The translations under genes were made by a program, and so were the position numbers. A stretch of 64,000 bases of DNA from an uncultured Acidobacteriota bacterium (GTDB lineage: Bacteria > Acidobacteriota > UBA6911), in NCBI GenBank assembly GCA_963809485.1, contig CAWEJX010000012.1:78185-142184 (forward strand), written 5' to 3'. Below, in pieces: positions 2,913 through 32,991 of this stretch (its first letter is position 1; every line of letters starts with the position of its first letter). Below the pieces are notes generated by a model. That model worked only from the letters and a program-made list of their open reading frames with translations, searched no databases and had not been told where the DNA came from.

Positions 2913-2916
2913 CCGA

Positions 2917-4101
2917 TTAGTTTCCTTTAGGGCGTAATCGATTATCCAGCGGGGAGAAATTATTCTTCCTGGACGGCAGAGCCACAATCGCATAGCCGGG
3001 CATTACATTTTCATGCCTTTGATTTATCGCGGATCGTTCGATACGAACGCAGGAATCTCCGTCGGCATCCATGAACTTTTCGGTAACCTTGCCCTTGATC
3101 CAAACGACGTCCGATAAATATACGAACTTATTGTATTCCGTATAACTTCTCTTCAGCCAGCCATCGTCTCCCATCCAATTGGTGATCAGTTGAACGGCCC
3201 AGCAGTGCCTTTGAACGCCGACATCGTAGGAGTGCGGAAGCCCCATGGCATTGGCCGCGGCCCGGTTATAATGAACGGCAAAAATCGGTTCGAGCGCTGA
3301 GGTGTTGGGATCCCGGAAAGCCCAGGCCGGATGCTTTTGATAGGATCGCAAAGCCACACCGTGGGCCTGCAATCTCGGGATAGGGACTCCTCCGCCGATA
3401 ACGTAAGCTATTTCATCCGTGACTCCGAGCGGCCCTTTGACCACCGGTTTAAGCTCATCCCCGATTTCAACGTCTTCCCAATACCGCGGGTTGGAGCCTC
3501 GGATTTCCTCGGAAAGAATTTCCTGTTCAATCTGCTGCAATTGTTCCTCGGTCCAGGGATGCGGCAATTCGATGTGAGCGTGCCTTTTTTTCTCGCGGGC
3601 CTTAGCCCTGGCAAAATGAACCACCCACCAGCGATACCTGGCGATTAGATCCCCGTTCTGGTTCCAATATTGATTTTGAAAATGATCTATCACGGTTTCG
3701 TCAGCATAGCTGCTTTCCTTCGGCCCCTCAAAACTCTTGAATACGCACTCTGCCGATATTTTATCCCCTATATAGATCGGCTTCATGAATTCCACATCGC
3801 AGCCCGCATGAAAGCCTCCCAGTCCTCTCCAGCCAAATATTACATGCGCAAAACAGGCCCAGACAAAGGAAGGAGGAGCCACGATGCGGCCATACGGGCT
3901 ATTTTGGGCATATTCCTTATCACTCCATAGAGGATTCACATCTCCTACGCCCTCGATGAATTTGAGAATCGCCATTCTGGATGCATACTCGTTGTGCGTG
4001 CTTTCGTCTATCCGCAGCGAGAGGCCCAGTTTGGCGCGCATTCCCTCTATCATTTCCTTGGTGATTGTCGAATCCGGCATCACCACCTTTTTTTCGGTCA
4101 T
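2917..4101 (-). CDS. MaoC-like / FAS1-type double hot-dog acyl-CoA (de)hydratase
   Basis: The ORF is about 395-419 aa. It has an N-terminal hot-dog region with GDVNPLW and a C-terminal MaoC-like region (GDELKPVVKGPLGVTDEIAYV...SDVVWIKGKVTEK). The likely start is ATG 4101, preceded by GAAGAGGTGG. It is embedded between CoA-transferase genes. Confidence 0.7.
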   Translation of the reverse strand: MTEKKVVMPDSTITKEMIEGMRAKLGLSLRIDESTHNEYASRMAILKFIEGVGDVNPLWSDKEYAQNSPYGRIVAPPSFVWACFAHVIFGWRGLGGFHAGCDVEFMKPIYIGDKISAECVFKSFEGPKESSYADETVIDHFQNQYWNQNGDLIARYRWWVVHFARAKAREKKRHAHIELPHPWTEEQLQQIEQEILSEEIRGSNPRYWEDVEIGDELKPVVKGPLGVTDEIAYVIGGGVPIPRLQAHGVALRSYQKHPAWAFRDPNTSALEPIFAVHYNRAAANAMGLPHSYDVGVQRHCWAVQLITNWMGDDGWLKRSYTEYNKFVYLSDVVWIKGKVTEKFMDADGDSCVRIERSAINQRHENVMPGYAIVALPSRKNNFSPLDNRLRPKGN

Positions 4102-4150
4102 CAGCCACCTCTTCAGCACGATCCGATCGTTCCAGCTGTATGCTTTGGAT

Positions 4151-5509
4151 CTATACCTCGCCAATTCCAATACCAAAATGTTTTCTCAGTTCAGTGACAT
4201 AATCCGGATCCATGCACCCCGCCTGTTGTTTTTCCAGCAAATCTACTCGTGTGGGCCTTCCGGGTGGGAACTCGGGCGTCCTGGAAATGACCTTCTCCTG
4301 CTCCAGATGCGCAAGGTCCTGCTTCGACATGCCCAACAAGGAACAAAGAACGTATTCGTTGTCCTCTCCAAAATGAGGAGCTCGTTTCAGTGCAGATTTC
4401 TTGAATCCCCGGAACTTTGCCGGTATCTGGCTGGGTATCGGTCTCTTACCTATGCCCTCCCCGTGGTCGACACACTGAAAGAAGCCTCGCTTCATGAGGT
4501 GAGGATTCAGGTTGATTTCTTTCATGTTGAGCGCCGGCCCGGCCGGAATTCTCAACCTCTGCAGGGTATACAATACTTCGAATTTGTCCCGCCGAGCAGT
4601 CCATTGCTCAATGAGGCAATCCAATTCAGGTTGCCTTGCAAGCCTGGCCTGCCTGGAGGAGAATGCCGGGTCCCTTAAGGCTTCCGGCTCATGAATCTCC
4701 CGGACGAAGCGTTTCCATTGGCTATCGGTTTCTATGGCAATCGCCACCCATTCGTCATCTCCCTTACAGCGGTAACAGCCGTGAGGGGCACATCCCGGAT
4801 GACGATTGCCCATGCGTTTCCGGTCGCGAGTGTTCAGGATGTAATCGAGAACTATGTCGCCCAGATGACAAATGGTGGCTTCTCTTCCGGAAACATCCAC
4901 GTACTGTCCCTTGCCGGTTTTCCTCTGATGGAAAAGTGCGGTCATCAGCGCCATGGCGGCATGTGCGCCCGTAACCCAATCCCCGTATGCGAAACCGGAC
5001 AGAAGCGGGGGCTCATCAGAATTGCCGGTGTTGTGCGTCAAACCACTCATCCCCTCCATGCCCGGCACATACATATAGTAGTCTTTGAGGGGGCCATCGT
5101 GTCCCAAACCGCTGATTGAAACCATGATGATTCGAGGATTGATCTTCTTTATGCGTTCGTAGTTCAATCCCCAATTGGTCATGACCCTGGGCGAATAGTT
5201 CTCAATGACTGCGTTGCTCACTTTTAGCAGCTGCCTGAAGATATCGCGTCCTTCTTCGGTGGCCATGTTGAGTGAAATGGCCCGTTTGCCTGCATTGAGG
5301 GAGTGAAACAGGCAACCGCGGTTCCAGGGATCGGTGCCCGGGTTGTTATCGGGATAGACATTGGCTCGCGTAAATACGTCGGGGCGTTGCCATGATTCTA
5401 TCTTGATAACTTCAGCCCCCAATTCGGCCAGTATCTTGGTGGCAACGGGACCCGCAAAAACCATGGTCAGATCGATAATCCTGATGCCCTCTAAAATCTT
5501 GTATGCCAT
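4151..5509 (-). CDS. Family III CoA-transferase (intact, 452 aa)
   Basis: GIRIIDLTMVFAGPVATKILAELGAEVIKIE, GKGQYVDVS and FGEDNEYVL are typical family motifs. Confidence 0.85.
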   Translation of the reverse strand: MAYKILEGIRIIDLTMVFAGPVATKILAELGAEVIKIESWQRPDVFTRANVYPDNNPGTDPWNRGCLFHSLNAGKRAISLNMATEEGRDIFRQLLKVSNAVIENYSPRVMTNWGLNYERIKKINPRIIMVSISGLGHDGPLKDYYMYVPGMEGMSGLTHNTGNSDEPPLLSGFAYGDWVTGAHAAMALMTALFHQRKTGKGQYVDVSGREATICHLGDIVLDYILNTRDRKRMGNRHPGCAPHGCYRCKGDDEWVAIAIETDSQWKRFVREIHEPEALRDPAFSSRQARLARQPELDCLIEQWTARRDKFEVLYTLQRLRIPAGPALNMKEINLNPHLMKRGFFQCVDHGEGIGKRPIPSQIPAKFRGFKKSALKRAPHFGEDNEYVLCSLLGMSKQDLAHLEQEKVISRTPEFPPGRPTRVDLLEKQQAGCMDPDYVTELRKHFGIGIGEV

Positions 5510-5524
5510 TCTCGTCCCGATCGT

Positions 5525-6730
5525 TTATATGATCCCGGCGCTCTGCAATTTTTTGATTTCTCTTTGTGTGTACCCCAATCCCCGATAAAACTCACGATTG
5601 TGCTCTCCCAACAGCGGAGCCCTTCCGGGGAGCCACGGTGTTTTGCCCAGTTTGACTGGCGATCCGGGGCTGGCAATTCTGCCCAGATGTGGATGATGCG
5701 TCGTATCAAAGAACTTCCTGGCTTTCAATTGCTGGTCCTTGAAGAGTTCTCCGGCGCTCAGGACGGGAGTGAAGGCCAGGCGCAGCTCCTGGGCTTCGGC
5801 TGTAATGTCCCATTTGTTGCGGCTCATCAGCCACGGAATGATCAGGGCGTCAAATCCTTCCGGATCGGCCATGCGCGTTCGCGGGTCGGCAAAAAAGCCG
5901 CTATTTTGAAGTTCAGGTTCGTTGATCAGAAAAGGAATATTCGGCGCGCCTCCGATGCCGGGCGTGAGGCTGATCCATCCATCTTTACAGGGGACGCTGT
6001 AACCTATGGGGTAACCGTGGATGGCAAATGGATTGGTGCGTCTGCTAAATCCCAGGTACGAATATTCCGTAACATGTCCCATTAAAGTGCTGGCAACACA
6101 CTCCATCATGCCTACATCTATCGATACACCACTATTGTTCTTTGCCCGACCTATCAGAGCCGCTACTGTCCCTATATAGCTCAGCACCCCGGTCGAGAAT
6201 TCCGCCTGGTATCCTCCTTGTACTGCAGGTCTTGTTTTGGGTTTAGTGCCCGGTCTCATCGGGTACACTGTCCCGCCGAGGGCCGATACCGTGAGATTAT
6301 TTGCGCGGTAGCGACGGTAGGGCCCGGTTTTGCCAAAAGCTGAAATGGAGGTCACGATCATGCGGGGATTGATGGTCCGCAGTATTTTCCCGGATAAACC
6401 CAGTTTTTGGAGAGTGCCCGGAACATAGCTTTCCACAAAAATATCTGTTGTTTTCAAAATCCGCTTTAATATTTCCGTCCCTTTTTTGCTTTGGACGTTT
6501 AATGTGATGCTTTTCTTATTCGTATTCAGATAAAAGAAAGTGCCGCTCTTCTCGAGGTCGTACTCATCGTTTGGGAACGGCCCTATTTCCCGGGTGATGT
6601 CCCCAAAATTCGGTCTTTCGACCTTAATCACTTCAGCGCCAAAAGAAGCAAACAATTTCGTGCAATAGGGACCTGCGATCCCCTGCGTAAGGTCCAGTAT
6701 CTTAACGCCGCTGAACACCCGTTCGCTCAT
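5525..6730 (-). CDS. Family III CoA-transferase (about 401 aa from ATG 6730)
   Basis: MSERVFSGVKILDLTQGIAGPYCTKLFASFGAEVIKVE...LGEHNREFYRGLGYTQREIKKLQSAGII. The longer ORF-track start at 6985 would read through the palindromic operator and overlap the upstream gene. Confidence 0.85.
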   Translation of the reverse strand: MSERVFSGVKILDLTQGIAGPYCTKLFASFGAEVIKVERPNFGDITREIGPFPNDEYDLEKSGTFFYLNTNKKSITLNVQSKKGTEILKRILKTTDIFVESYVPGTLQKLGLSGKILRTINPRMIVTSISAFGKTGPYRRYRANNLTVSALGGTVYPMRPGTKPKTRPAVQGGYQAEFSTGVLSYIGTVAALIGRAKNNSGVSIDVGMMECVASTLMGHVTEYSYLGFSRRTNPFAIHGYPIGYSVPCKDGWISLTPGIGGAPNIPFLINEPELQNSGFFADPRTRMADPEGFDALIIPWLMSRNKWDITAEAQELRLAFTPVLSAGELFKDQQLKARKFFDTTHHPHLGRIASPGSPVKLGKTPWLPGRAPLLGEHNREFYRGLGYTQREIKKLQSAGII

Positions 6731-6762
6731 AAAATCACGCTGACTTGCCGGCAACAGAGATG

Positions 6763-6851: not shown

Positions 6852-8577
6852 CTACTCAGCCGGCAGGATTTTTTCCCAGTTTGCCGGCAATTGGATCCTT
6901 TTGCTGACCGGGGGCCCTTGCTCGTGGTTTTGGACATAGCCTCTGCTGCGATTTCGCCCGGAGTCCCCACTGACCACAATCCCAATCCATTCGGGCTTCA
7001 AAAATACCGGAACCATTCTTGCCGGATCGTCTGACTCGCAATACAGGTGTGAAATCAGCTTCTCGTCCACCCTTCGGCGCAGGCTGAAGCCGGTAAAACC
7101 TCCCTGCCAGGCGAGTCTTTCCATTGAGGCCACAGACACCTTGGAGTGGTCATACAAATACTGCTGCACGTCCTTTTTCTGCAACCCGTCTTTTGCCAGC
7201 ACGCGTGCTATGCTTGGACTGATTACCAATAAAGGAAAAAATTTCCCCCAATTGACGGCCATGTGGGTCCAGGTCGACATGGCTCCCCCGAACACTTCCA
7301 CGAATGTGTCCAGGTGGTCCCTGGCTTTATCCCCTCCACTGGCAATCGGCGCTGTTGCGTATACAACACTCTGGACGGTGACGACACTATCGTCGGGTTT
7401 AAAGCCGCGAGAAACGCTGAACGATTCCCATCCAAGCTCGGTCAATACATCCTCATTCTCGGCCAGAGCTACCTTGAATGTTTCACCGATCGTCGCCTTA
7501 TCCGTTGTTCCGGGTGGTATCCGCAAACCGGCCACATTCCTCATGAACAGCCTCAAAAAGCGGCCCATGCTGGTATTGGCCTGGCGGCCAACTCGCATCA
7601 CCCCGGTTTCATAGTTGATATTCAGGTCTTTTATTATGGGGCCATTGAGAACAATCAGCGGCTCCCAGCCGGGGGTACTGCCGGCATCCTCAATCCGGAA
7701 TTCAGGATCGGAAACAGCCTCTATAACGGCCAGGAGAACGGGCATATATTCCGGTCTGCACCCTGCCATTACGCCGTTAACAGCGATGTTCCAGACCGTG
7801 GCCGCCCGGCTTTCGGGAAGCAAAATCCCGATGACTTCTTCCCGCGACCGGTCCGTAAATTGAAGAAACTTTTCGACTCTGTCGATGGTCGGAGGGATCA
7901 CCGGGAGACCATCGGTCCATTGTCTCCTGATAAAAAACTCCTGAACTTCATCCAAAGTCCCCCGGAAAATGATTTGGTCCGGTTCCGGTTCTTTTGTTCT
8001 GGCCGCCTGCGTTACAGGTTTGGTAAATACCTGAATGATATTGTCGACAAGGGTACCGGTAACCTTTTGGATCAACTCTTCCCGGCTGTCTACGGACACC
8101 ACGCCTGGATACTCCGCCACGGGCAGATTCTGGACTCCCAGGCTCTGGCCCACTGTCTGGACTTGTTTCAAAAAGCCGGTGGTGATAATCGAGGCTGAAG
8201 GAATGCCGGCTTTTTCAGCAACTACGCTTGCCCGCGCAACCGCGGGCGAGCAGCTGCCTCAGCCTCCGACTCCGGATATAACGGCATCACAGCCGATATT
8301 GACGAAGTCTGTCTGCCAGGGTGGCAATGATCTCGGCTTCTTGCGGGCCATGCGTATTGCCGAAGGTCTCATATTCAATGAATTTTACACCCGGATATCG
8401 CTCGGACAGTGAGGCTCGGATGAGAGGAAAAATTTCTTCCGCCCTGAAACCGTAGTCCGACAACTCACAGATAGTCTTGCCGGATAAATCCGCAATTCGA
8501 GGCGCCAGGGTTACCTTTTCAGATATTATTTTCCCAAGAGGCCATACAACTTCGTATCCCGTCTCTTGCATCATCAA
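6852..8577 (-). CDS. Two-domain UGSC-type selenoprotein (N-terminal UGSC module plus uncharacterised C-domain). Sec codon is at 8261..8259. A +1 frame break lies near 8310.
   Basis: ORF 8287..8577 gives the N-module (APRIADLSGKTI...). In the next frame I read FVNIGCDAVISGVGG-TGA-GSCSPAVARASVVAEKAGIPSASIITTGF. That reading continues in frame into ORF 6852..8171 (WTDGLPVIPPT, NGVMAGCRPEYMPVLLA). Confidence 0.75.
8230..8247 (-). promoter_or_regulatory. SECIS-like stem-loop 11 nt downstream of the UGA at 8261..8259
   Basis: The mRNA reads UGA-GGCAGCUGCUC-[GCCCGCG GUUG CGCGGGC], a 7-bp GC stem. The GGUU sequence sits at the apex. Confidence 0.55.
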
Positions 8578-8667
8578 TCTCCCGATCTCGCCGTGGATAC
8601 ACGGCTTTCAGCATATTCGCCTCAAAAAACCGATCCTCTCTATCCCAATGCAATTGGCGGATACACC

Positions 8668-10389
8668 TTATTTAATCGTCGGACTTCCCCATCCTCCGTA
8701 TTTAGAGAGGAGGGAGTGCCAGTTTTGAGGAACGTGTATCGGTTTGGTTACAAAATGCGATGGCCCATATCCCCAGGTCCCTATATAGGCAATCATGTCG
8801 GGACCGGGGCCTCCAGCAACGCAGACCTTGAGGCTTTCCGGATTGAGAAGCAGCGGTACCGGGGCATTCGGGTCTTTCTGATGTTTTTCAATAACCCATT
8901 TCGGCAGCCTGCAGAATCCCGGGGCTTCCCTTCCGTCGAACACCTCGTTTCCGGGCAACTGGATTCTTTCGTATAGCTTTTCCTGGAGTTTCTTTCTGGA
9001 AAAACCTTCCCGACGGATAGCCTCAAATGCAGTCGGCGAAATAAGCACCAGATTGTTGTAGATACAGTTAAGAGCATACCGGTCATATTTCGCTTTTGCC
9101 TGGAGGCTAATATGGGAAATGATTCTCTCGACGGAAGGAGGAGTCGGCAATACCAGGTCCGGCTGCCAGGACATGGCCGGCATCACGCTGATTGTCGGCT
9201 GATCGTCAGGAAATCCTTCGGCGACTCGCAATGGTTCCCATGCGCCTGAGTATGCCGATTCATTCTCTCCTATCAGGGAGTAATATCTGAAAGGGCTCCC
9301 GAAGGCTTTCATGTCATTGATGCCGGGCCAGGTTTGGCCCAGGTTCATCATTATCAGCTTAAGCGCCCGCCCGATCGCTGCATTCGCTTTCCATCCCGGA
9401 CCCACTGTGCAAAAACTATCATTTATATTGAGTTCATCGATCAGCTTTTTCCCGCTGACAACAAAGAAAGGAGCCACCTGGCCGGATGTGCACTGCACGC
9501 CTATGAGGTCAAACAAGGGATCGATGATCGCTTCCACCGCAGCCAGGATGACGGGCATATGCTGCGGCAGGCACCCGGCCATCGCCGCATTGACCGCGAT
9601 CTTCTCTATGGTCGCGTTCACTCCACTGGGAGGGAACCGGGCTATGACGTGCTCGCGCGGCAAGGATGCCCCTTCAAGCATTCTTGCCACTGCCTCTTCC
9701 GTCGGCGGTGCCAGCGGCAAGCCATCGCTCCAGCCATGATTCAGGAAAAAGCGCTCCATTTCCTCCTGAGCTGCAAGGAAATCCTTGCCGCCGAATGCCA
9801 GACTCGCTTCATTGACTTCCGGTATCTCAGGAGGCTGCGGGGACCACCGGGTCAAAGATCTGACAACCTCGTCCGCAACCTTCTCGGCTATCTCCAATTT
9901 CTCAATTTCCTCTGCAGGCGGTACATAATCCAAAATCAACGGAGCCACTGCCAGGTCTTCCAAACCTTCGCTCCTTGCAAGAAACCTGGCGTTGGATTTA
10001 AAACAGTTTGTGACTATGAATGCCACCGGCTTCCCCAATTTCTCAATACGGATGGCATCCGGGGCGGTTCGGGTCGTGCTGCCTCCCGACATTCCCATCG
10101 CGACGATCACGGCATCGCTATTGTCGGCAACCTCTCTGAGTTTAGCCGCCCTGGCATCCGCATCCCCCAGCACCGACATTTCCCACGTGCGGAATTCGGC
10201 GTCGGGCATTCTGTTTCTCAGGGCCTTGTCCAGGTAAGGATAGAATATCTGGCCCACCGGGACGCGGTTTCTGAGGATGCCGATCTTCACCCCATTCAGG
10301 TCCTTCAGACGAGGCGCATTGGGTATTGGAGCAATCTCCGAACTCGCCGTGGGATTCAAAACCCTCAGATGCGTTTGGCCGCTGGTCAC
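8668..10389 (-). CDS. Two-domain family paralogue in which the U-x-x-C pair is replaced by SGGS
   Basis: SDAVIVAMGM-SGGS-TTRTAPDAIRIEKLGKPVAFIVTN aligns with the ...GD-UGSC-T... region of the paralogues. The C-domain has GWSDGLPLAPPT, NAAMAGCLPQHMPVILAA, ANAAIGRALKL and ENE. The probable start is GTG 10389 after GGGAGGA. A TTG at 10410 is the alternative. Confidence 0.75.
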   Translation of the reverse strand: MTSGQTHLRVLNPTASSEIAPIPNAPRLKDLNGVKIGILRNRVPVGQIFYPYLDKALRNRMPDAEFRTWEMSVLGDADARAAKLREVADNSDAVIVAMGMSGGSTTRTAPDAIRIEKLGKPVAFIVTNCFKSNARFLARSEGLEDLAVAPLILDYVPPAEEIEKLEIAEKVADEVVRSLTRWSPQPPEIPEVNEASLAFGGKDFLAAQEEMERFFLNHGWSDGLPLAPPTEEAVARMLEGASLPREHVIARFPPSGVNATIEKIAVNAAMAGCLPQHMPVILAAVEAIIDPLFDLIGVQCTSGQVAPFFVVSGKKLIDELNINDSFCTVGPGWKANAAIGRALKLIMMNLGQTWPGINDMKAFGSPFRYYSLIGENESAYSGAWEPLRVAEGFPDDQPTISVMPAMSWQPDLVLPTPPSVERIISHISLQAKAKYDRYALNCIYNNLVLISPTAFEAIRREGFSRKKLQEKLYERIQLPGNEVFDGREAPGFCRLPKWVIEKHQKDPNAPVPLLLNPESLKVCVAGGPGPDMIAYIGTWGYGPSHFVTKPIHVPQNWHSLLSKYGGWGSPTIK

Positions 10390-10414
10390 GTTGGTATCCT
10401 CCCGGAGCAATGCA

Positions 10415-11440
10415 TTATTTCGGCCGGATCCCTTTCGAATAATTCACCCGGCCTACATAGAATTCCTCCTCAGGCTCGCGCGGCGTTACACCTGCCCTTT
10501 TCAGGCCTGCCCGCATGGCATCCTTCAAGCGCTGGAACAGGAATGACGTCGGTTTCCTGAACATGCCTCCATTCCCGCCAGTCAGCCACTGCATGTATTT
10601 CATTCCCAGCATCCCGCCCTGAAACGCGGCATCCCGGGCGCCCATAATTATCGGAGTCAGCTCCCAGTAGAGTTCCATCCCTTTGGAGAACTCTCCTTGA
10701 GCGAACAGATTGAACATCCGGACTATTCTTGGATTCTCCGCTGTCTGGTCGAAGATTACGTAGTCGGCCGGCCCCGCCCACTGTTGTCCGTATTTGGCGA
10801 CAGTGATCGGCCATTCCGCCATTTCTGCGGCCTGAAGCAGCACTTGATCGCCGACACGATGGTGAACGTCAACCCACTTTCCAAGGCCGTCACTGAGATA
10901 GGCCTTTATTGCCACTACGTTGGGTATTTGACAGATTCTCTCGATGAGCGCCGGATTGAACATGCTTGGATGAAATCTTCCGAAATCGTAAAAAGGTTTC
11001 GGCCAGAGATCGACAGCGAGGTTGATGGAATCGCATATCTTTTGGGTGACGCGATAGATGTCCTCTTCCGATTTGGCATAAAAGTTGCCCGGCCAGCCCA
11101 AAAGAGTGTGGGTTCCGCCCACGCTTTCGAAATAATTCAGCAATTCTATCGATTGATCGGCATCGTCAAGGGCTCCGAACATGGACACAAGAACTTTGCC
11201 CTTGGCTTCTTCAGCGACAATTCTTACAAATTGCCTGCGCTCTTCATTGCTCAAAGCGCTGACTTCTAAGGCGCAAAATACGCTGAACATGCCTTTTTCT
11301 ATGTTGTGCCTGACGTCGTGCCGGATCCCTTCCTCATCCAGCGCCTCGAGGTCCGGAGTGTACGAGGGTTGAATGACTCCATCCAATCCGCGATAGTGCT
11401 TTTTGGCCCATGCCTTCGCTTCTGGTTTTGTAAATTCCAT
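10415..11440 (-). CDS. Dihydrodipicolinate synthase / N-acetylneuraminate lyase family (class I aldolase) protein
   Basis: The ORF is 341 aa. The family layout is present, with the putative Schiff-base Lys in IPNVVAIKAY. It is a paralogue of 11513..12559 and 16828..17874. Confidence 0.7.
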   Translation of the reverse strand: MEFTKPEAKAWAKKHYRGLDGVIQPSYTPDLEALDEEGIRHDVRHNIEKGMFSVFCALEVSALSNEERRQFVRIVAEEAKGKVLVSMFGALDDADQSIELLNYFESVGGTHTLLGWPGNFYAKSEEDIYRVTQKICDSINLAVDLWPKPFYDFGRFHPSMFNPALIERICQIPNVVAIKAYLSDGLGKWVDVHHRVGDQVLLQAAEMAEWPITVAKYGQQWAGPADYVIFDQTAENPRIVRMFNLFAQGEFSKGMELYWELTPIIMGARDAAFQGGMLGMKYMQWLTGGNGGMFRKPTSFLFQRLKDAMRAGLKRAGVTPREPEEEFYVGRVNYSKGIRPK

Positions 11441-11512
11441 AAACAGCTCCTTGCAGTGGTGATAACGCGTTTTATCCGTTATCGCATATACATAGGTGTC
11501 TTCTATTTCGTG

Positions 11513-12559
11513 TCATGCCTCATATTTTTTGAGCCTGTAACCTTTTGCATAATTTACGCGGCCCACATAAAACTCCTCCTCCGGCTCACGCGGAGTAATT
11601 CCCAGGGCTTTCATACCGGCCCTGATGGCATCCTTTTGATAATCGTACAGACGGCCTGTAGGCTGCCGGACGGTTCCGCCATTTCCGCCGGCGCACCAGT
11701 GAGCGTATTTATCCGATAGAGCGGTCACGATGCCGGTGTGAAAGTAGGAATCCGCCAACGACCCCTGTGCGCCCGGCCGGGACATCCCCCAGAAGATATC
11801 CATAGCCTTGTCGATCTCGCCCTTGATTAAATTGTCGAATATCCTCACGATTCGCGGATTCTCAGGAGTCTGCATACAATAAAAAGGCCCTGCGCCGGCC
11901 CACTGCTGCCCGTACTTCGGGATAGTGAAAAACCATCTGTCCGGCATCGGATCACTGACCAGGATTCGATCACCGCAAAGATGGAAAGCCTGAATGGTGA
12001 GTGCAAGGGAACTGCCGCCGGTGACTTTCATCGCCACGACGTTGGGGATGTCGCAAATTCGGCGCATCACGTCCGGCGGGAAATAACTTGGATGGAAATG
12101 CCATGTGTGCAGCCGGCCGGGATAAAACGTTATTGCCAGGTTGGTGGACTCGCACATGAATTTATACATCTGGAAAATGTCTTCTTCCGACCGGGGGTAA
12201 TATTGCACCGGATGGGCAAGCGTGACATGAGTGCCGCCGACCTTTTCGATATGATGCAGCATCTCGATATCCTGCTCGACCGTGTCCTGCATGACGCTTA
12301 CGGAACTGTGCATTTTGCCTTTGGCTTCGTCGCAGACTATCTGCACGAATTGCTTCCGTTCCTCGAATGTCATGCCGCAGGCCTCGGGCGCAGCCATTAT
12401 CGAAGTAAAGCCATTGGCGTAAATCTGGTTGACATCGAAACGGATGCCATCGTCATCCAGCTTTTCAAGGTCGGGAGTGAAAGAAGGGAAAATCGGCACT
12501 TCCAGGCCTTTCATATGCTTCTTTGCCCACAATTTAGCTTCTGATTTGGTGTATTCCAT
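11513..12559 (-). CDS. DapA/NAL-family class I aldolase paralogue
   Basis: The ORF is 348 aa, with IPNVVAMKVTGG. It is about 75% identical at the protein level to 16828..17874. Confidence 0.7.
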   Translation of the reverse strand: MEYTKSEAKLWAKKHMKGLEVPIFPSFTPDLEKLDDDGIRFDVNQIYANGFTSIMAAPEACGMTFEERKQFVQIVCDEAKGKMHSSVSVMQDTVEQDIEMLHHIEKVGGTHVTLAHPVQYYPRSEEDIFQMYKFMCESTNLAITFYPGRLHTWHFHPSYFPPDVMRRICDIPNVVAMKVTGGSSLALTIQAFHLCGDRILVSDPMPDRWFFTIPKYGQQWAGAGPFYCMQTPENPRIVRIFDNLIKGEIDKAMDIFWGMSRPGAQGSLADSYFHTGIVTALSDKYAHWCAGGNGGTVRQPTGRLYDYQKDAIRAGMKALGITPREPEEEFYVGRVNYAKGYRLKKYEA

Positions 12560-12625
12560 ATTTGTCTCCCCGGTCCGATTGCAGATTTCCGATTGAATAA
12601 GGTCTATTCAATCCGCGACCCGCGG

Positions 12626-13679
12626 TTATTCAATCACCCTGGTAATAGAGCCATTCCCAAAGGTTGGAATAAAGCATGAATGCTTTCCCGGTCCACCCAA
12701 AACCATTACGACAAAGTCATCCTTATGGGCGATCGGCATCCATTCACAGTCTGTAAATTCACCATACTTTTCAGGGAATTTTCTCCTGTACTGGAGATTT
12801 TCTTCAGACAAACTCTTTTTAGAGAAGCGAGCATTTTCAAAAAGAAATTCCCTAATCTGCTCCTTTGAAAATCCGTCTTTGGCGATCGCCGCTGCATGTT
12901 CCGGGCACAGCATCAAGACAGGTTCGCCGGTGAAAAAAAGCGCATTGTTGCTGCCCGGTTGAGCCATAGTAGCGGCAATGGTCCTCAATAAGTCTTTGCC
13001 AAGGACACTGTTATGTTCATTGATATTGTGGGGGCCTTCCGCAGCAAACACAGTGACCGTGCTATCCCCGGCTTTGAAAGCCTCTCTCAACATGGAAAGG
13101 CTGCCACGGACTTTCCTCTTCGTTTTCGGCAACGCAGTAGGTGTATTTTCCAGGCTGACCCTGCGTGGACTTGTCGATCTCGCCCGGCATGGCCCCTCCG
13201 ATGTTGATCAGGATCAACCTGACGGCGCGGCCTATGGTTGCATTGGCTCTGACTCCAGGTCCGAATGCATTGCCTTTGCCGTTCAATCCTATTCTTTGCG
13301 CGATGGGACCGTTGACCACGATCAAGGGACTGCAGGGATGCGTTGTTGATTGCACGCCCCGGAGCCCGAATTTCTCATCAGACATCGCCTTCAGGGCAGC
13401 GACAATCACCGGCAAATACTCGGGCAGGCATCCAGCCATCACGGCATTGATGGCAGTCTTTTCCAGCGTGGCGGCTCCCATCCTTGGAGGAAGGATCGCC
13501 ACAACTTCCTGCGGATCCCCATTGCCGATAGCGGACAGCATTCTGCGTACCCGCTCCTCCGTGGGTGCGATGATCGGCAGGCCGTCGCTCCAGCCAAACT
13601 TGATGAAGGCGTTGTTTACAGCGTCTTCACAATTCTCAACGCGAACTTTTTTCGATACCAGCCTGCGGACGTTTTCCAC
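12626..13679 (-). CDS. Stand-alone C-domain of the two-domain family (no UGSC module); +1 frame break near 13076
   Basis: GTG 13679 follows GAGGTGAT. The sequence reads FGWSDGLPIIAPT, INAVMAGCLPEYLPVIVAA, ANATIGRAVRLILINIGG and AENEEESPWQPFHVERGF. It then continues in the +1 frame as KAGDSTVTVFAAEG..., which is ORF 12626..13132. Confidence 0.75.
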
Positions 13680-13700
13680 CGGAGATCACCTCTGCATGAA

Positions 13701-14579
13701 TCAGGCGCTCAATCCGAGCAGTTTGGCCGGATTTTTCTTGGCCATCAGGGTAATTTCTTCCTCGCCTATGCCATATTTAATCAAAGTGACTATAAACATT
13801 CTCATGCCTTCGACAGGCAGCGGGTTCCATATTTGCCCGAGATCCGTCGACATAATGCACTTTTCGGCGCCCACTGCCTTGATTACGTCCACCATCTCGG
13901 CGGGATCATGTCTGAACTCGGATGCCTGGAAGGCCAGGAAGGTGCACTCGATAAAAGCGCCGTTCTTTGCCAGCTGAATCAGATCCTGCTTGGTGAAAGC
14001 CTCGGAAAAAAACTCGTGATCCAGAGGATGCGTGACCACAAATTTATCGATGCCCAATCTGCGGGCTTCCGCTTCCAGGGCAAACGTCTCGGTCGGCGAC
14101 ATGTGCCCGCTTGCCAGAACCATATCGTGTTTCTTGATGATCGGGAGCATCGGACCGATCTCCGGCACCAGGCGCCCCTTGCTATCCAGGATCGAGTACC
14201 CCTCTCCTTTAAGGGGAAGCCCGAGTCCTCTCATTTTGGAAATGGAGTTGGTGGATGAGAATGTCGGCATCCAGACCACGCGCGCCCCTGCTCTCGCGGA
14301 ATATTCGACCGCATACACATTCAATCCGCCCATTTCATAGTCCAGGCAGACGCTGCCAAATGCGGTGAAATCAGGAACCAGCTGGTTCACCATCATCGCT
14401 ATTGGAGCGGACGGGTAGAAGTGGTTTTTTATGACGAAGGCTTTCATCCCGGCCTGCTTCGCCTGATTGGCAGCTTCCAGTGCATCCACCCGGCATTTGA
14501 AGGCGTCGGGGCCGGGATGAAAATGCATATCGATGGATCCTGACAGCAATTCGTCATAGTCAATGATCTTCATGGCCAT
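13701..14579 (-). CDS. Metal-dependent hydrolase of the amidohydrolase superfamily
   Basis: The ORF is 292 aa. It has an N-terminal H-x-H motif (SIDMHFHPGPD), later His and Asp residues, and a TIM-barrel-sized length. It sits between the stand-alone UGSC gene and the stand-alone C-domain gene. Confidence 0.6.
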   Translation of the reverse strand: MAMKIIDYDELLSGSIDMHFHPGPDAFKCRVDALEAANQAKQAGMKAFVIKNHFYPSAPIAMMVNQLVPDFTAFGSVCLDYEMGGLNVYAVEYSARAGARVVWMPTFSSTNSISKMRGLGLPLKGEGYSILDSKGRLVPEIGPMLPIIKKHDMVLASGHMSPTETFALEAEARRLGIDKFVVTHPLDHEFFSEAFTKQDLIQLAKNGAFIECTFLAFQASEFRHDPAEMVDVIKAVGAEKCIMSTDLGQIWNPLPVEGMRMFIVTLIKYGIGEEEITLMAKKNPAKLLGLSA

Positions 14580-14590
14580 GTGTGCTCTCC

Positions 14591-15164
14591 CTATCGCGTG
14601 CCGACAAGCACCGCGACTATGGTATCAACAGCATTTTCAGCCTTTTTTCGCACTTCCTCCGGGGTAACGCCTGCAAGGGGATGCGGAATCGTAACCAGGC
14701 GCGGAGCCGATATCCCCCTGGCCATGTGAAACTGATTTGGCCAACGACAGGAATGCATCGCTGCAAATGATGGCCGTCGGAATCCCTCTCTTTTCCAATT
14801 CTGTCGAATCGTGGATACTCCACGATGTGCAGGAACCTCAATCGCAGATCCCATAAACAATGGCGTCACATTTGGGCGCAAGCTGCTTCATCTCTTCCGG
14901 AGTCAGGGGAACCGTCGCGCCGGTCCCTCCTTTTTTAATGTGGACAATCTCCGCAAATTGAAATTTTTGACGGAGTGCTGCTTCCACATGATCCAAAAAA
15001 ATATCGAAGTTGGGTTTGCGGTTATCCACCAAGCCGATGACCTTGCCATTCAGGTCATCCAGACACATTGCGATGTGTTCTTGTTTTACAGTCGTGGTTG
15101 CAGTCGGATCCAATACTTCGATATATTCTTTCACTCTATTCGCCCTGAAATGTCGGAATTCCAA
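14591..15164 (-). CDS. Stand-alone UGSC-family selenoprotein (about 190 aa). Sec codon is at 14840..14838. A +1 frame break lies near 14732.
   Basis: ...KCDAIVYGICD-TGA-GSCTSWSIHDSTELEKRGIPTAIICSDAFLSLAKS. The sequence then continues in the +1 frame as HMARGISAPRLVTIPHPLAGVTPEEVRKKAENAVDTIVAVLVGTR, which is the tail of ORF 14591..14881. Confidence 0.75.
14808..14826 (-). promoter_or_regulatory. SECIS-like stem-loop 11 nt downstream of the UGA at 14840..14838
   Basis: The mRNA reads UGA-GGUUCCUGCAC-[AUCGUGGA GUA UCCACGAU], an 8-bp stem. Confidence 0.55.
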
Positions 15165-15169
15165 AAACT

Positions 15170-16090
15170 CTACAGTTGATCCATCAGCCTTTGTATCGCG
15201 ATTGCTGCCGTCGCGCCATCTCCTACTGCAGTGACTATCTGTCCCCGGGAATTGCTTCGGATGTCACCCGCCGCGAAAATATTGGGGAGGTTTGTTTGCA
15301 TCATTTCATTCACCAGAATGCGTCCCTGGTTGTCGAGTGACAGTAGATTTCTGATAAAGCCGGTGTTCGGATCGGTTCCCACGGCGATCAGGACGCCATC
15401 GATACTGAGGGTTTCGGTCTTTTGTGTCGCCCTGTCGTAAATCTCAACCGCTTCAACCTTGCCGCTACCTGATATCTTGACCAGCTCTGCGCCGCATCGA
15501 AGCTCGATCTTGCTATTGGAACTAATCCTTTCCTTGAGAACCGCGGAAGCGGAAATCGTCCCTTCGACCTCGATCAGATACACTTTGGCTGCGATCCTGG
15601 CCAGGTAGAGAGCCTCGGTGACGCCCCTGTCTCCGGCGCCGCATACAACCACTGTCTTATCGTGAAACTGACCGCCGTCACAAAGAGCGCAATCAAATAC
15701 GCCCTTCTCCTCCAGTTCCCGCTCCCCGGGTATATTCAGTTTCCTGGGACGGCAGCCGCTGGCAATTATCAGCACTTTAGCCGTGAAGTATCTCCCGTCG
15801 GTCAGCTGCACGCAGGTCGATTCGGAATACGATTCGATCCCGGCGACCTCGGCCATTTCCATCTGCAGGCCCGAGTTGACGGCCTGGATCGTCATTTCCG
15901 AAGCCAGCTGGGGCCCTGCGACGCCGTCACTGAATCCGGGATAATTCTCGATCCAGTCGGCATTCTTAATGCTGCCGCCAAAACCATCCTTATCAACCAG
16001 CAGGGTCCGATACTTGCCCCGGCTCAAATAGAGGCCGGCCGTAAGCCCCGCAGGGCCTCCACCAATTATTATGGCATCAAAGTCCCACAT
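15170..16090 (-). CDS. Thioredoxin-reductase-like pyridine nucleotide-disulfide oxidoreductase
   Basis: The ORF is 306 aa. It has FDAIIIGGGPAGLTAG (FAD-binding), the redox motif CALCDG in the position of the TrxB CATCDG, a second Rossmann fold (VVVCGAGDRGVTEA) and a C-terminal AAGD motif. It is the first gene of the long minus-strand gene string. Confidence 0.75.
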   Translation of the reverse strand: MWDFDAIIIGGGPAGLTAGLYLSRGKYRTLLVDKDGFGGSIKNADWIENYPGFSDGVAGPQLASEMTIQAVNSGLQMEMAEVAGIESYSESTCVQLTDGRYFTAKVLIIASGCRPRKLNIPGERELEEKGVFDCALCDGGQFHDKTVVVCGAGDRGVTEALYLARIAAKVYLIEVEGTISASAVLKERISSNSKIELRCGAELVKISGSGKVEAVEIYDRATQKTETLSIDGVLIAVGTDPNTGFIRNLLSLDNQGRILVNEMMQTNLPNIFAAGDIRSNSRGQIVTAVGDGATAAIAIQRLMDQL

Positions 16091-16399: not shown

Positions 16400-16790
16400 C
16401 GAGAATGTTTTCCGCAGCCGGGCATCCTGGGAGCCTGGACGGTTTCAATGCATTTATGAATGGAATCAATTCCAAAACCAACAACTGGAAAGATACCGTG
16501 ATTCTCGACTGGCGGGATAAGGTGGCTGGGGGATGGAACCGATCAATGAAGCCTCCATGGGGATGGCTTCGGTCCCCTGCTTCGATAGCGGGCTGATTTA
16601 TGCCACGACGGACAAGTACTATCACGGGTGCAACGGCGGTATGCTGAGACAGCCGGTGCCGGGATTGTATGATTATCAGAAACCGAGGATTCGGGCATCT
16701 TTAACAGCCGGGGGAATGACTCCGCGATAAGCTCAAGAAGAAAAGTTCTACGTAGGCAGGACCAATTATGCCGGAGGAGCGAGGTAAGGA
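16400..16790 (+). pseudogene. Relic of a DapA/NAL-family gene: the C-terminal third only, with frame changes and an in-frame TAA
   Basis: ...ATTDKYYHGCNGGMLRQPVPGLYDYQKPRIRASLTAGGMTPR-TAA-AQEEKFYVGRTNYAGGAR matches ...SDKYSHWCNGGNGGTVRQPTGRLHDYQKERIRAGLRALGFTPREPEEEFYVGRVNYAKGAR of the intact copy immediately downstream. Confidence 0.65.
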
Positions 16791-18449: not shown

Positions 18450-20952
18450 ATGGCGATTGAGTCTGGCAGCAAGTATGCCGAAGAAGTTGGATCATGGCAG
18501 GAAATTCTTATACCTGTCCGTTCCGCGCGGGTTGAAAAGGCCAGGGAAAGAGTGCGCAAAGAAGCCGAAATCTGCCTGGAACGCATTCGAGCCGAACTCA
18601 AGGCCTATAACCAGTATAAAGACCAGCCTTCCATCATTCAGCGAGCCCGCTTCCTTGAGACTTTCCTGAGGGAGAAAAGTGTGCTTATCCAGGAGGATGA
18701 ACTCATTATAGGTACCGTGGGAAGTAAGCCTCGCTCCGCTTTTATAACAACGGCGAATATCGCCTCTATCGAAGAAGAGCTGGATGATCCGGTAAAGGAC
18801 TTCTCAATACGGTCCTATGACAGGATTTTAGTTCATCCTGAGGAGAGAAAAGAACTGAGAGAAGAGATTATTCCGGCCGTTAAAGGCAGTGCCATCTCTC
18901 TTTTCGAGTATAATTTTAAAAATGTCGACCGGGATATTCTCGAACATGCCGCTCCCGGAGTCTCATCCTGTCCGCATATACCTATTATCGGTGACGTATC
19001 GATGGCAAGAGAAGGCGGCCACATGTTCCTCAACTTTGAAAAGGCCCTTTGTAAAGGGCTTAGAGGAATCAAGGAAGAGGTCAGGGAGAAGTTGGCGGAA
19101 CTTGACCAGCCATATCGCGGATTTGACCGAAAACAGAGACGAGAATTTTACGAATCCGTGCTCATCACCCTGAATGCCGCTACGGAATATTTCCAGAAAT
19201 ATGCCGGACGCGCGCGTGAGATGGCAGCAAAAGAAACAGATCCGAAACGAAGGACGGAACTGGAACATATTGCCGAGACATGCGACCGGGTGCCGGAAAA
19301 TCCCGCGCGGGACTGGTGGGAAGCTCTACAGTCCATCTGGTTCCTGTTCACTCTGAGTTGGATGGAACACGCCACTTTTGCAGTACATTTTCTCGGCCGA
19401 ATCGACCAGATTTTGTATCCCTTCTACAAGAAAACCGTAGAAGATGAGAAGAAAATGACCCGGGAAGAAGCTCTGGAGCTTCTGGAATGCTTCCTGGTGA
19501 AATTCAACGAACCAGCCTGGGCACTCAACTACGAGTGGTCGCAATGGGCAACCGGCCAGGGACTTTCCCAGACAATGGTGATCGGCGGACAGACCAGAGA
19601 GGGCAAAGATGCCTGCAACGAGGTTACCATGCTTGTACTGGAAGCTATGGAACAATTGCGTCTGAATCAGCCGGAATTCGCCATGAGGATATGGGAAGGG
19701 ACACCCGATAAATATCTTAAAAAGGCGACCGAGCTTATCCGCCTCGGGCTCGGCTATCCGAAATTCATCGGTGACCGGAAAGGAATTCAGATGGCAGCCA
19801 AGGCCTATCCGGACCTGACAATCGAAGACTGGCGCCAGTTCGCTGTTGCCGGATGTTCGGAGATAGGTCTGCCTTATATCACTATGGATAACGGTTATGA
19901 AGCAATCGCACTGGCCTCCAAGTGGATAGAGCTGGTCTTGAGTAACGGTAAATGCGCGGTATGCGGCAAGCAGATCGGACTGGAAACCGGCGATCCCAGG
20001 AAATTTGAATCTATGGAACAGGTGAAAGAGGCCTACCGCAAACAGGTATTCTACTGGGGCGAGTATATGGCAAAGGCCGAGAAGATTTTCAAGGAAAACC
20101 AGAGCGAATGGTATCCTGCTCCATTCTGCTCGGCCTTTACCGAAGGACCCCTTGACAGAGGGCGAGATATTACCAGGGGCGGCGCCTGGTACACCGTGTA
20201 CGGTTTCCTGCTGGCCAGCATCGCCGACGCAGCGGATTCTCTGGGAGTAATAGACAAGCTTATCTACCGTGATAAAAAGGTTACCTGGGACCAGCTGATT
20301 GAAGCGGTGAATGCCAACTGGGAAGGTTATGAAAACATAAGGCAGCTCTGCGTCAACGGTGTCCCAAAATACGGGAATGACGACGATTACGCCGACGGCT
20401 GGGCAATCTGGGTAGCCGATGTCTGGGCCGACCTTATAGACTGGCTCAATACCAGAAAAGACCTTATGCCGAGGTGGGGAGGCAGATATCTGGCAGGTGG
20501 CCTGGTGGCAATAGCCAGTACCCAGTTCGGAGAATCGATCGGCGCTACACCAAACGGGCGTAAACATCCCATGCCGGTGGCTGATACCTGCTCTCCTGTA
20601 CAGGGTGTCGACCGGAACGGTCCCAGCGCCGTGGTCAAGTCATTCAGTAAATTGCCTACTCACCGGTGGGCGCTCGGCGGTCTGATAAACATCCGGTTAA
20701 ATCCGAATCTGTTTACAACCGATGCTGACCTTGAGAGATTTGCGGCTTTTATTCAGAGCATGTGAAGAGTTAGGTCTGTACCATGTTCAGTTCAATATAA
20801 TTTCTGCGGAACTGCTGCGTAATGCAATGAAAGAACCGGAAAAATACCGGGACCTGCTGGTCCGGGTAGCCAGCTATGTCGCCTACTTTGTTGAGTTGAG
20901 TCCGAACCAGCAGATGGACATCATCAACAGAACCGAGCAACAGAGCTGGTAA
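18450..20952 (+). CDS. Glycyl-radical-enzyme family protein (PFL2 / dehydratase-eliminase type). A +1 frame break lies at about 20760. The radical-Gly position reads Ser.
   Basis: The N-terminal 771 aa are PFL2-like, with a Cys-loop AVAGCSEIG (C-x-E). The C-terminal radical domain lies in ORF 20722..20952: ...EELGLYHVQFNIISAELLRNAMKEPEKYRDLLVRVASYVAYFVELS. Removing base 20760 joins ...AAFIQS to CEELGLY.... Confidence 0.8.
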
Positions 20953-32987: not shown

Positions 32988-32991
32988 TAAC

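Follow-up and report, generated by a model that had tools for sequence, protein, structure and literature searches.

An operon of UGSC-family selenoprotein genes and a proposed two-module redox cycle

Two described systems lie closest to the locus analysed here. The first is a UGSC-containing selenoprotein family, published in 2008 together with a UGSC/Unknown_1 fusion (PMC2398784) and listed as uncharacterised in a 2026 review (PMC13188914). The second comprises the Stickland grd and prd operons (for the mechanism of PrdB, see PMC11229817), with which the locus has a trxB-like gene and a UxxC motif in common. The likeness to these operons ends at their partner proteins: GrdA, GrdC/D and the pyruvoyl proprotein GrdE/PrdA were not found among the ~60 proteins scanned in the window (the whole 64-kb stretch of DNA that was analysed). 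The original prediction had presented the locus as an undescribed system with a Stickland parallel; the 2008 publication, and the existence of NCBIfam and Pfam models of the family, contradict the first part of this claim, and on the second, the locus is not a grd/prd operon.

Gene content of the operon and of the window

The locus is a minus-strand gene string with the order and tight packing originally described, the intergenic gaps being ~5–100 nt. Its first gene encodes a low-molecular-weight TrxR-like flavoprotein with the motif CALCDG (15170–16090), the stop of which lies 5 nt ahead of the start of gene B (14591–15164), a stand-alone UGSC selenoprotein of ~190 aa. Then follow a DUF6282 gene (13701–14579; PF19799, E = 4e-61), which is amidohydrolase-superfamily-like and has an HxH motif; gene C (12626–13679), a stand-alone C-domain protein of ~350 aa; two divergent DHDPS/DapA-family genes (11513–12559 and 10415–11440; PF00701, E = 4.7e-8 and 1.8e-10); gene D (8668–10389), intact, in which a UGSC-like N-domain and a C-domain are fused (573 aa); and gene A (6852–8577), a UGSC and C-domain fusion of ~574 aa. 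The downstream genes (491–6745) are four family-III CoA-transferases (5525–6745, 4151–5509, 1719–2993 and 491–1630) and a MaoC/FAS1-dehydratase-like gene (2917–4110), and positions 1–299, also on the minus strand, translate as the N-terminal end of one more UGSC-like N-module gene, which crosses the window edge.

Parts of this arrangement recur elsewhere. Metagenome contig L003 (89% nucleotide identity over 12 kb) has syntenic counterparts of the first DapA-family gene and of the CoA-transferase/MaoC-like genes. The latter are also syntenic on the P0004 contig, where the place of the edge gene is taken by a fused UGSC gene encoding at least 591 aa. The DUF6282 gene, placed here between split UGSC gene B and C-domain gene C, belongs to the same UGSC-DUF6282-C-domain triad in L003, L048 and L060.

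At least 11 family genes are present in the window, at least six of them beyond those first described. Paralogues E (22172–24034, plus strand; PF24696, E = 1.4e-16) and F (27610–29433, plus strand; PF24696, E = 6e-14) are fused, E starting with a hydrophobic stretch (signal or anchor) and F with a signal peptide; both are without the U/C pair and have Ala for the C-domain Cys. Three more fused paralogues carry a signal peptide and exactly one in-frame TGA each: G (41206–42993, plus strand; TGA at 41569, motif U-GGC), I (45277–46947, minus strand; TGA at 46552–46554, motif UGSC) and J (56602–58320, plus strand; TGA at 56956, motif U-STC). Paralogue H (43331–44773, minus strand) has a C-domain, an N-terminus that resembles a signal, and an N-module that is reduced or absent.

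The UGSC module and its selenocysteine codon

Judged by profile matches, the N-module belongs to the UGSC family, which is already known and has no characterised member. As originally suspected, gene B, once its frame is repaired (see below), exceeds the NCBIfam model 'UGSC family (seleno)protein' cutoff (NF041046; 152.6 bits, cutoff 125) and scores 175 bits against the Pfam UGSC domain (PF24696), which is also passed by gene D (84 bits) and by repaired gene A (107 bits). In the AF2 model of gene D (pLDDT 93.8, pTM 0.93) the motif position opens a helix (102–117) after a strand (93–99), and in Foldseek comparisons the N-domain falls with flavodoxin-like folds. The N-module is thereby predicted to be a flavodoxin-like alpha/beta domain, with Sec-x-x-Cys at a helix N-terminus; it is probably a distant relation of the Sec region in GrdB/PrdB.

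The Sec codons of genes B and A are TGAs at 14838–14840 and 8259–8261, respectively. Alignment of Sec or Cys at this position in homologues had been set beforehand as a refutation test; among 82 UGSC domains of other genomes, 79 have TGA at the U position, two encode Cys there and one Ser, and the frame runs on past it in all 82. Within the window, a hairpin follows the in-frame Sec codon of each of five genes (A, B, G, I and J). That of gene B, SECIS-like with an 8-bp stem and a GUA loop (14808–14826, minus strand), starts 15 nt past the UGA; that of gene A has a 7-bp GC stem and a GUUG loop (8230–8247, minus strand) inside a longer stem, and folds at −31.6 kcal/mol (z = −2.3). Family-wide, 79.5% of cells of the hairpin 15 nt past the TGA are paired, versus 65.7% in shuffles (0 of 500 as high), and the covariation score is 0.41, versus 0.20 shuffled and at most 0.17 in slid controls. 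These alignments show a conserved Sec codon accompanied by a covarying, putative SECIS element. No tRNA-Sec lies within the 64-kb window and no selA, selB or selD among the window ORFs scanned.

Pairing with the C-domain and links to disulfide reductases

The C-domain (~350 aa) is, as first stated, outside characterised families: gene C has no Pfam or NCBIfam match, the best PDB match is weak (class I fumarate hydratase, E = 6e-5 but TM 0.22), and so are the other fold matches, which include Toblerone-fold cyclic amide hydrolases (TM ~0.2). The signature quoted for it is present, and no columns of the family are more conserved than those of its motifs W-x-DGLP-x-x-PPT, NAVMAGC, AN-x-x-IGRA and AENE..PW. 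Invariant residues are the Asp of DGLP, the Asn and Arg of N-x-x-IGR, and the Glu of AENE. Of 146 copies paired with Sec, 28 have Ala at the position of the conserved Cys, which is therefore not an obligatory redox partner.

The proposed Rosetta-stone pairing proved strong in both directions, and outside this genome. In 66 of 80 loci seeded with the C-domain, UGSC lies within 10 kb; conversely, a same-strand C-domain is present in 65 of 66 informative metagenome loci seeded with the UGSC motif alone (32 fused, ~22 split among the motif-seeded loci). Both domain orders occur, the reverse one in P0133 and P0202. The pairing of the UGSC N-module with the C-domain, fused or adjacent, is near-obligate, and the functional unit appears to be a two-module protein that is either fused (A, D) or split into neighbouring genes (B and C).

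Recurrent links of this system to disulfide-reductase modules are of two types. Firstly, there are fusions: P0258 joins UGSC, C-domain and FeThRed_B (E = 1.4e-16), and P0147 joins C-domain and FeThRed_B. Secondly, a TrxR-like gene, where present, is usually immediately adjacent to the UGSC/C-domain genes (it follows the fused gene directly, on its downstream side, in L010, L026, L029, L041, L056 and L079). Among 80 genome loci, eight have such a neighbour; among 32 long metagenome loci there was not one. The rare ferredoxin:thioredoxin-reductase fusions and the minority TrxR adjacency support a redox role; a TrxR-like partner is not general. The TrxR-like protein of the operon, aligned with TrxR-like neighbours from other loci, scores 311 bits against TIGR01292 (cutoff 343) and E = 1.9e-47 against Pyr_redox_2, and has E-V-E instead of the HRR NADPH motif. 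Several window paralogues have signal peptides, so a cytoplasmic flavoprotein could not recharge those exported proteins.

A proposed redox cycle and its alternatives

We favour, with a confidence somewhat above even, the explanation that this operon of a known, uncharacterised family acts by a two-module selenol/thiol redox cycle; the UGSC/C-domain protein itself is most likely a two-module selenol/thiol enzyme. The presumed role of the C-module is to bind and activate a small substrate, which probably bears a carboxylate. In the chemistry that we infer, the selenolate would attack, or reduce, the substrate held by the C-module, and the neighbouring Cys would resolve the intermediate to a selenenylsulfide. 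Re-reduction would be carried out in this operon by direct electron transfer from the dedicated TrxR-like flavoprotein, whose reductant is probably not NADPH; a fused ferredoxin:thioredoxin-reductase-like domain would take this part in some relatives, and general thiol systems elsewhere. Through the operon, a selenoprotein that is common in the environment becomes accessible to testing.

In a less probable reading, catalysis by the C-domain involves no redox step: it would be, for instance, a hydro-lyase, isomerase or hydrolase whose substrates are carboxylates or cyclic amides, and the UGSC-like module would be mainly its structural or regulatory partner, with Sec-x-x-Cys working as a redox switch or for protection and taking no part in turnover. 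A and B carry the U/C pair; gene D has SGGS in its place and hence no redox pair, and its orthologues include a conserved subfamily with SGGS or TGTS. D, E, F and this entire subfamily retain the N-module without Sec or Cys, so the pair is dispensable in some members. The C-domain weakly matches folds of non-redox enzymes only, yet at a TM of just ~0.2; CoA-transferases, hydratases, SDRs and amidohydrolases mark the neighbourhoods as ordinary catabolic clusters, and TrxR-like neighbours are rare, yet their tight adjacency and the reductase fusions favour electron delivery. The near-constant Sec with a Cys three residues on represents a cost and a conservation typical of catalytic Sec, and the module resembles the catalytic Sec region of GrdB/PrdB.

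It is also conceivable, but unlikely, that the cluster is decaying in this genome, A, B and C being genuine pseudogenes and the system non-functional. The three had originally been given as single genes, with their frames silently spliced; their lengths (1726, 574 and 1054 nt, respectively) are not divisible by three, and none has a single open frame even when TGA is read as Sec. Removal of one nucleotide restores each (A ~8296, B ~14727, C ~13076), and the extra bases—none within a long homopolymer—are 1-nt insertions relative to L003, in which all three genes are intact (gene C as a 350-aa ORF). Frameshifts also break the gene of a glycyl radical enzyme (GRE), an SGL-like gene, a URO-D-like gene and two Mo subunits of the xanthine-dehydrogenase family (XDH), with four shifts in one XDH gene alone. 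This scatter over unrelated window genes, roughly one shift per 5 kb, is an assembly-error pattern. Moreover, single indels aside, A, B and C are still ~89% identical in nucleotides to orthologues that are intact; they show neither premature stops nor larger lesions, and the frames of paralogues D, E, F, G, I and J are unbroken. Since similar frameshifts occur window-wide, we read those in A, B and C as, most likely, sequence errors of the assembly.

Service to neighbouring xanthine-dehydrogenase-family molybdoenzymes, such as Se/S handling for the Mo cofactor, rather than action on a catabolic substrate, is very improbable. Family genes do stand directly upstream of Fer2/MoCo/FAD sets in the window (F, then 29876–37807), L001 and L005, and large subunits occur in nine of 82 loci; ~90% of loci are without an XDH-family gene within 10 kb, as is the operon under study, and nothing homologous to XdhC, YqeB or YqeC was seen.

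Membership of a grd or prd operon, as a glycine, sarcosine, betaine or D-proline reductase, is less credible still, despite the UxxC motif and the trxB-like gene. UGSC domains do match GrdB, GrdF, GrdH and PrdB weakly but repeatedly (TIGR01917 in 11 of 21 domains, model positions 333–399, best E = 6e-6). The likeness to GrdB noted at the outset survives to that extent; scores of 14–21 bits over ~70 residues fall far below the family cutoffs of 65–800, and aerobic Betaproteobacteria, Sphingomonas and Bacillaceae commonly carry the UGSC family. The scores, together with the lack of partners among the ~60 window proteins scanned, rule membership out.

That the TGA codons are ordinary stops between separate small genes, as gene callers have it (108 + 68 aa and 104 + 407 aa in L003), can be dismissed given conserved in-frame coding beyond a same-column TGA, its occasional replacement by Cys, the covarying hairpin after it and an NCBIfam model that bridges the stop.

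Layout of the UGSC operon and its paralogues

A compact string of minus-strand genes extends from position 16090 to the window edge, with intergenic gaps of ~5–100 nt. The first gene of this operon encodes a TrxR-like protein with a CALCDG motif (15170–16090), and its stop codon is separated by 5 nt from the start of gene B, which encodes a stand-alone UGSC protein (14591–15164). The string continues, always on the minus strand, with (i) a DUF6282 gene (13701–14579), (ii) gene C, which encodes the C-domain—a module of ~350 aa that pairs with the UGSC N-module—on its own (12626–13679), (iii) two divergent DHDPS-family genes, (iv) gene D, in which both modules are fused and the motif reads SGGS (8668–10389), (v) gene A, in which both modules are fused and the motif reads UGSC (6852–8577), (vi) four family-III CoA-transferase genes and one MaoC-like gene, and (vii) the start of a further N-module gene (~299, at the window edge). 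ORF listing and translation hence agree with the original prediction on genes, order and motifs, but frameshifts in A, B and C had been overlooked and further paralogues missed.

The intervals of A, B and C are not divisible by three, and none of them forms one frame even if TGA is read as selenocysteine (Sec). The homologous stretch of a JGI metagenome contig (L003), collinear with the window in gene order and sharing 89% nucleotide identity with it over 12 kb, shows A and B interrupted at TGA only and C as an intact 350-aa ORF. Relative to this contig, the window carries single-base insertions at ~14727, ~13076 and ~8296, with no other net frameshift in that stretch. A blastx screen finds similar breaks in unrelated genes throughout the window: at ~20750 in the C-terminus of a glycyl radical enzyme, at 26387 and 26469 in an SGL-like gene, at 30742, 31130, 31590 and 31820 in one XDH Mo subunit, at 33420 in a second XDH-family Mo subunit, and at ~62300 in a URO-D-like gene. 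Apparent single-base frameshifts across the window point either to an assembly prone to error or to a region in decay. Since the breaks occur in unrelated genes and the reading frames of paralogues D, E, F, G, I and J are unbroken, we treat them as assembly or sequencing errors (about one per 5 kb), and regard genuine decay of A, B and C as a minor alternative. That the frameshifts are specific to the UGSC family is ruled out by the breaks in unrelated genes.

Family genes are present in at least 11 copies in the 64-kb window. Those outside the operon include paralogues E (22172–24034), F (27610–29433), G (41206–42993) and J (56602–58320) on the plus strand, and H (43331–44773) and I (45277–46947) on the minus strand. 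All six have N-termini that, by inspection, resemble signal peptides; a signal-peptide heuristic applied to family members outside the window returned false positives only. Paralogues D, E and F, together with a conserved SGGS/TGTS subfamily, are without the redox pair. G, I and J are unbroken frames with exactly one in-frame TGA each (in U-GGC, UGSC and U-STC, respectively). In each, the C-domain Cys is replaced by Ala. Their products would be selenoproteins destined for export.

Several further features of the window were recorded. A gene for a dehydratase/eliminase-class glycyl radical enzyme (18450–20937, plus strand; nearest models CutC, HypD and sulfopropanediol dehydratase, with scores under the equivalog cutoffs) is followed by that of its activase (20986–21915, plus strand), and the pair is divergent from the UGSC operon. 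At least three XDH-family (Fer2/MoCo/FAD) sets are present, at 29876–37807 (plus strand), 47042–51041 and 62956–63921 (both minus strand); one large FAD subunit carries fused Fer4_20 and Pyr_redox_2 domains. Paralogue F lies immediately upstream of one XDH-family set, an arrangement of family genes also seen at two other loci (L001 and L005). Two short intergenic remnants at 16533–16730 and 21940–22142 (both plus strand), one a DapA-like C-terminus and one a DUF6282 N-terminus, hint at earlier duplication and rearrangement of the cluster. Three long ORFs have no Pfam match: 38079–39419 (plus strand, 446 aa), 51696–52670 (minus strand, 324 aa) and 58888–60903 (plus strand, 671 aa).

Family membership and the selenocysteine codon

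Profile searches confirm that the N-module belongs to the UGSC family. Against NF041046 ('UGSC family (seleno)protein'), repaired B reaches 152.6 bits, above the cutoff of 125; the N-domains of A (repaired) and D, with 62 and 49.5 bits, stay under this equivalog cutoff. Against PF24696 (cutoff 25), B, A and D score 175, 107 and 84 bits. The expectation that the system was undescribed has to be given up: NCBIfam and Pfam models exist, and both a UGSC-containing protein and a fusion of UGSC to a conserved domain, 'Unknown_1', were published in 2008 (Zhang and Gladyshev, PMC2398784). Because UGSC and C-domain are paired in 98% of cases, 'Unknown_1' is very likely the C-domain. UGSC was among the top five or six selenoprotein families by abundance in the GOS metagenomes, with 255 Sec versus 21 Cys forms, and several non-marine GOS samples used it more than any other such family (PMC2398784); a 2026 review still counts it among the uncharacterised families (PMC13188914).

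The genes described here are new members of this known, functionally uncharacterised family. They share with the 2008 family the U-G-S-C motif, the fusion to an unnamed downstream domain, and the basis in computational prediction. The locus differs in its TrxR-like first gene, its split B-DUF6282-C layout, its non-Sec (SGGS) and exported-type paralogues, and its total of at least 11 copies within 64 kb. An exact-sequence search with D gave no match, and a scan of genome contigs gave no close relative, the best being 52% identical; among named relatives, a protein from an Acidobacteriota MAG is nearest.

In A and B the motif is encoded by TGA-GGx-TCx/AGC-TGC, while D has SGGS and lacks the Sec/Cys pair. 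The original prediction hinged on homologues aligning Sec or Cys at the same position, and they do so: among 82 UGSC domains that neighbour C-domains in other genomes, TGA occupies the U column in 79, Cys in two and Ser in one, and the Cys at +3 is retained in most. In genes A, B, G and J, a SECIS-like hairpin follows at a distance of 14–15 nt from the UGA; no model in Rfam matches these hairpins. Across 53 sequences, 79.5% of hairpin cells are paired, compared with 65.7% in shuffles (0 of 500 shuffles reach the observed value). The covariation score in these sequences is 0.41, as opposed to 0.20 when shuffled and at most 0.17 with partners slid, and there are 54 double-sided changes. Judged from the sequences, the Sec codon is genuine.

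The peptide S-W-S-V-H-D that follows UGSC corresponds to the two hairpin arms in most members, such that protein and RNA constraints coincide. Over the UGA and the next 45 nt of 53 genes, W-to-C changes in this peptide are offset by synonymous Val-codon changes. The 64-kb window itself contains no tRNA, and hence no tRNA-Sec, and its scanned ORFs include no Sel protein.

Pairing and predicted folds of the two modules

The pairing of the two modules was examined from both sides. Of 80 genome loci seeded with the C-domain, 66 have a UGSC domain no more than 10 kb away, on the same strand in every case. From the UGSC side, 80 metagenome loci were seeded by the peptide pattern following Sec alone; 65 of the 66 with enough flanking DNA encode a same-strand C-domain (58 downstream, six upstream and one elsewhere). 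Around 32 of the UGSC-seeded loci are fused and around 22 have separate ORFs, and fusions in the reverse order (C-domain then UGSC) exist. The Rosetta-stone argument—that domains occurring both fused and as neighbouring genes probably work together—is borne out by these counts, with the modules co-occurring well outside this genome.

When all neighbouring ORFs were clustered without bias, no conserved third partner emerged beyond UGSC and the C-domain. The neighbouring genes represent varied catabolic clusters: SDR, LLM oxidoreductases, CoA-transferases, Bug/TctC binding proteins, XDH-family enzymes, amidohydrolases and crotonases. Dehalococcoidia also have the B-DUF6282-C triad (L048 and L060).

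The C-domain family is large, yet as yet without a family model: it comprises 4007 clusters at 50% identity (E ≤ 1e-3; 663 at E ≤ 1e-30) and is encoded in no fewer than 597 stretches of genomic DNA. Hosts include Dehalococcoidia, Desulfatiglans, Acidobacteriota, Betaproteobacteria, Methylomirabilota, Binatia and a Robertmurraya isolate, among others. (Near-)invariant elements are D-G-L-P..P-P-T, N-A-V-M-A-G-(C), N..I-G-R, E-N-E..P-W and a V-A-G-G strand. Neither C nor the C-domains of A and D match any Pfam or NCBIfam model, 42 diverse members contain no Pfam family within the C-domain itself, and PDB sequence searches with the C-domain were empty, the profile search giving nothing under E = 0.35. 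Six representative proteins of 709–741 aa (P0131, P0142, P0171, P0178, P0192 and P0247) contain two tandem C-domains and no Pfam-detectable UGSC.

Structure prediction, which had been proposed for the C-domain, yielded a confident model but low-TM matches only. AF2 models full-length D with pLDDT 93.8 and pTM 0.93, and the C-domain alone with pLDDT 89.5. Full-length Foldseek searches return generic flavodoxin-like matches only; the C-domain alone has weak matches, to class I fumarate hydratase with E = 6e-5 and a TM of 0.22, and to Toblerone-fold cyclic amide hydrolases with E ~0.02. These are the sole PDB folds with any C-domain signal, the former being an Fe-S enzyme, but they differ from the C-domain in several respects: TM is ~0.2, rmsd exceeds 13 Å, there is no sequence similarity, and the three-Cys cluster site is lacking. 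At most, the model-based matches hint at small-acid or cyclic-amide substrates.

The N-domain is modelled as five parallel strands alternating with helices, and its top Foldseek matches are azoreductase, NQO1, flavodoxin domains and lumazine synthase. In the AF2 model of D, the redox motif sits at the start of helix 102–117, directly after strand 93–99. A thioredoxin-like fold was guessed for UGSC in 2008 (PMC2398784); the predicted structure argues against this, being flavodoxin-like instead.

The Cys of NAVMAGC was considered as an obligatory redox or pyruvoyl-type partner of Sec, and rejected as obligatory: of 146 Sec-paired copies, 28 have Ala at this position, and the non-Sec subfamily also keeps the Cys.

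Reductase links and proposed function

The region is best read as encoding a two-module selenoenzyme, in which a selenol/thiol centre like that of GrdB, located on the flavodoxin-like module, would act on a substrate held by the C-module. Recycling of the selenenylsulfide would fall to the dedicated TrxR-like protein in the window operon, to an FTR-like domain in some relatives, and elsewhere to general systems.

The likeness to GrdB is partial. Repeated weak matches link UGSC to the Sec region of GrdB, GrdF, GrdH and PrdB; TIGR01917 is matched by 11 of 21 UGSC domains over model positions 333–399 of 431 (best E = 6e-6). Scores against the GrdB-family models (TIGR01917, TIGR01918, TIGR04483 and NF040794/5) nevertheless reach only 14–21 bits, under cutoffs of 65–800. 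Shared with GrdB, GrdF, GrdH and PrdB are a UxxC motif with Sec first, ~70 residues of weak similarity around it, and a second polypeptide that binds the substrate, presumably the C-domain in the case of UGSC; grd operons also include trxB. PrdB uses its Sec to attack proline, bound to the pyruvoyl group, at the alpha-carbon (PMC11229817); this 2024 PrdH paper contains no PrdB/GrdB structure. Unlike GrdB, GrdF, GrdH and PrdB, UGSC has the unrelated C-domain as its partner rather than a pyruvoyl proprotein, is without GrdA/GrdCD, and is found in aerobes and as putatively exported forms. Membership of the grd/prd reductases is rejected on two grounds: the scores are far under the cutoffs, and no GrdE/PrdA pyruvoyl proprotein, GrdA or GrdCD was found by Pfam or NCBIfam among the ~60 window proteins scanned.

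A general link to thioredoxin reductase is not seen: among 80 genome loci, eight carry the TrxR-like gene, and the 32 long metagenome loci are all without it. Where present (in Dehalococcoidales and Proteobacteria), it usually abuts the UGSC/C-domain gene, and the Dehalococcoidales neighbours are 47–54% identical to the window protein. The latter contains CALC and scores 311 bits against TIGR01292 (equivalog cutoff 343.45). E. coli TrxB has the HRR NADPH motif where the TrxR-like protein has Glu; the corresponding residues are E-V-E in the window protein and I-E-A in its Dehalococcoidales neighbours (L010 and L041). Given the replacement of HRR, the electron donor may be NADH or ferredoxin rather than NADPH. 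An FTR catalytic domain is fused C-terminally in two homologues, P0258 (UGSC, C-domain and FeThRed_B) and P0147 (C-domain without UGSC).

The locus resembles the Trx/TrxR and FTR systems in its x-x-spaced redox pair at a helix N-terminus and its adjacent low-molecular-weight TrxR-like CxxC flavoprotein, and resembles the FTR system further in the fusion of some relatives to the FTR catalytic domain. It departs from the Trx system in that the UGSC domain is not predicted to have a thioredoxin fold, and in that the TrxR-like protein falls under the TrxB equivalog cutoff with HRR replaced. A cytoplasmic flavoprotein would be unusable for the exported members, which complicates the proposed recharging by TrxR. 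In one homologous locus, from a Thermodesulfobacteriota single-cell genome (L014), a separate FTR-like gene (5807–6136) lies ~4 kb away.

As to the substrate class of the two-module selenoenzyme, we infer small carboxylates or N-heterocycle breakdown products, from (i) the operon content (CoA-transferases, MaoC hydratase, DHDPS-type lyases and the DUF6282 hydrolase) and (ii) the wider island (the HypD/CutC-class glycyl radical enzyme, a Xaa-Pro-dipeptidase-like amidohydrolase and several XDH-family enzymes). A bolder reading, which we consider rather unlikely, would make UGSC plus C-domain a new class of Sec-dependent reductase. Its mechanism would be GrdB/PrdB-like (selenolate attack on the bound substrate, with a selenenylsulfide as the oxidised form) and pyruvoyl-independent, with a new catalytic fold. 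It would serve small-carboxylate or N-heterocycle-derived catabolism in aerobes and anaerobes, in cytoplasmic (TrxR/FTR-recharged) and exported forms. If true, a selenoprotein family that is among the most abundant in the environment would gain a function.

The locus makes the function of UGSC experimentally approachable. The module pair is near-obligate, a TrxR-like or FTR-like reductase is physically linked in some lineages, and the split (B plus C) and fused (A) forms are adjacent and suited to complementation. The cultured Bacillaceae isolate Robertmurraya sp. 2P01SA is a possible experimental model. Its genome (NZ_CP154845.1) encodes, at locus L022, a fused UGSC (TGA) and C-domain protein (9968–11602 in that locus), with a DUF6282 gene ~2 kb downstream.
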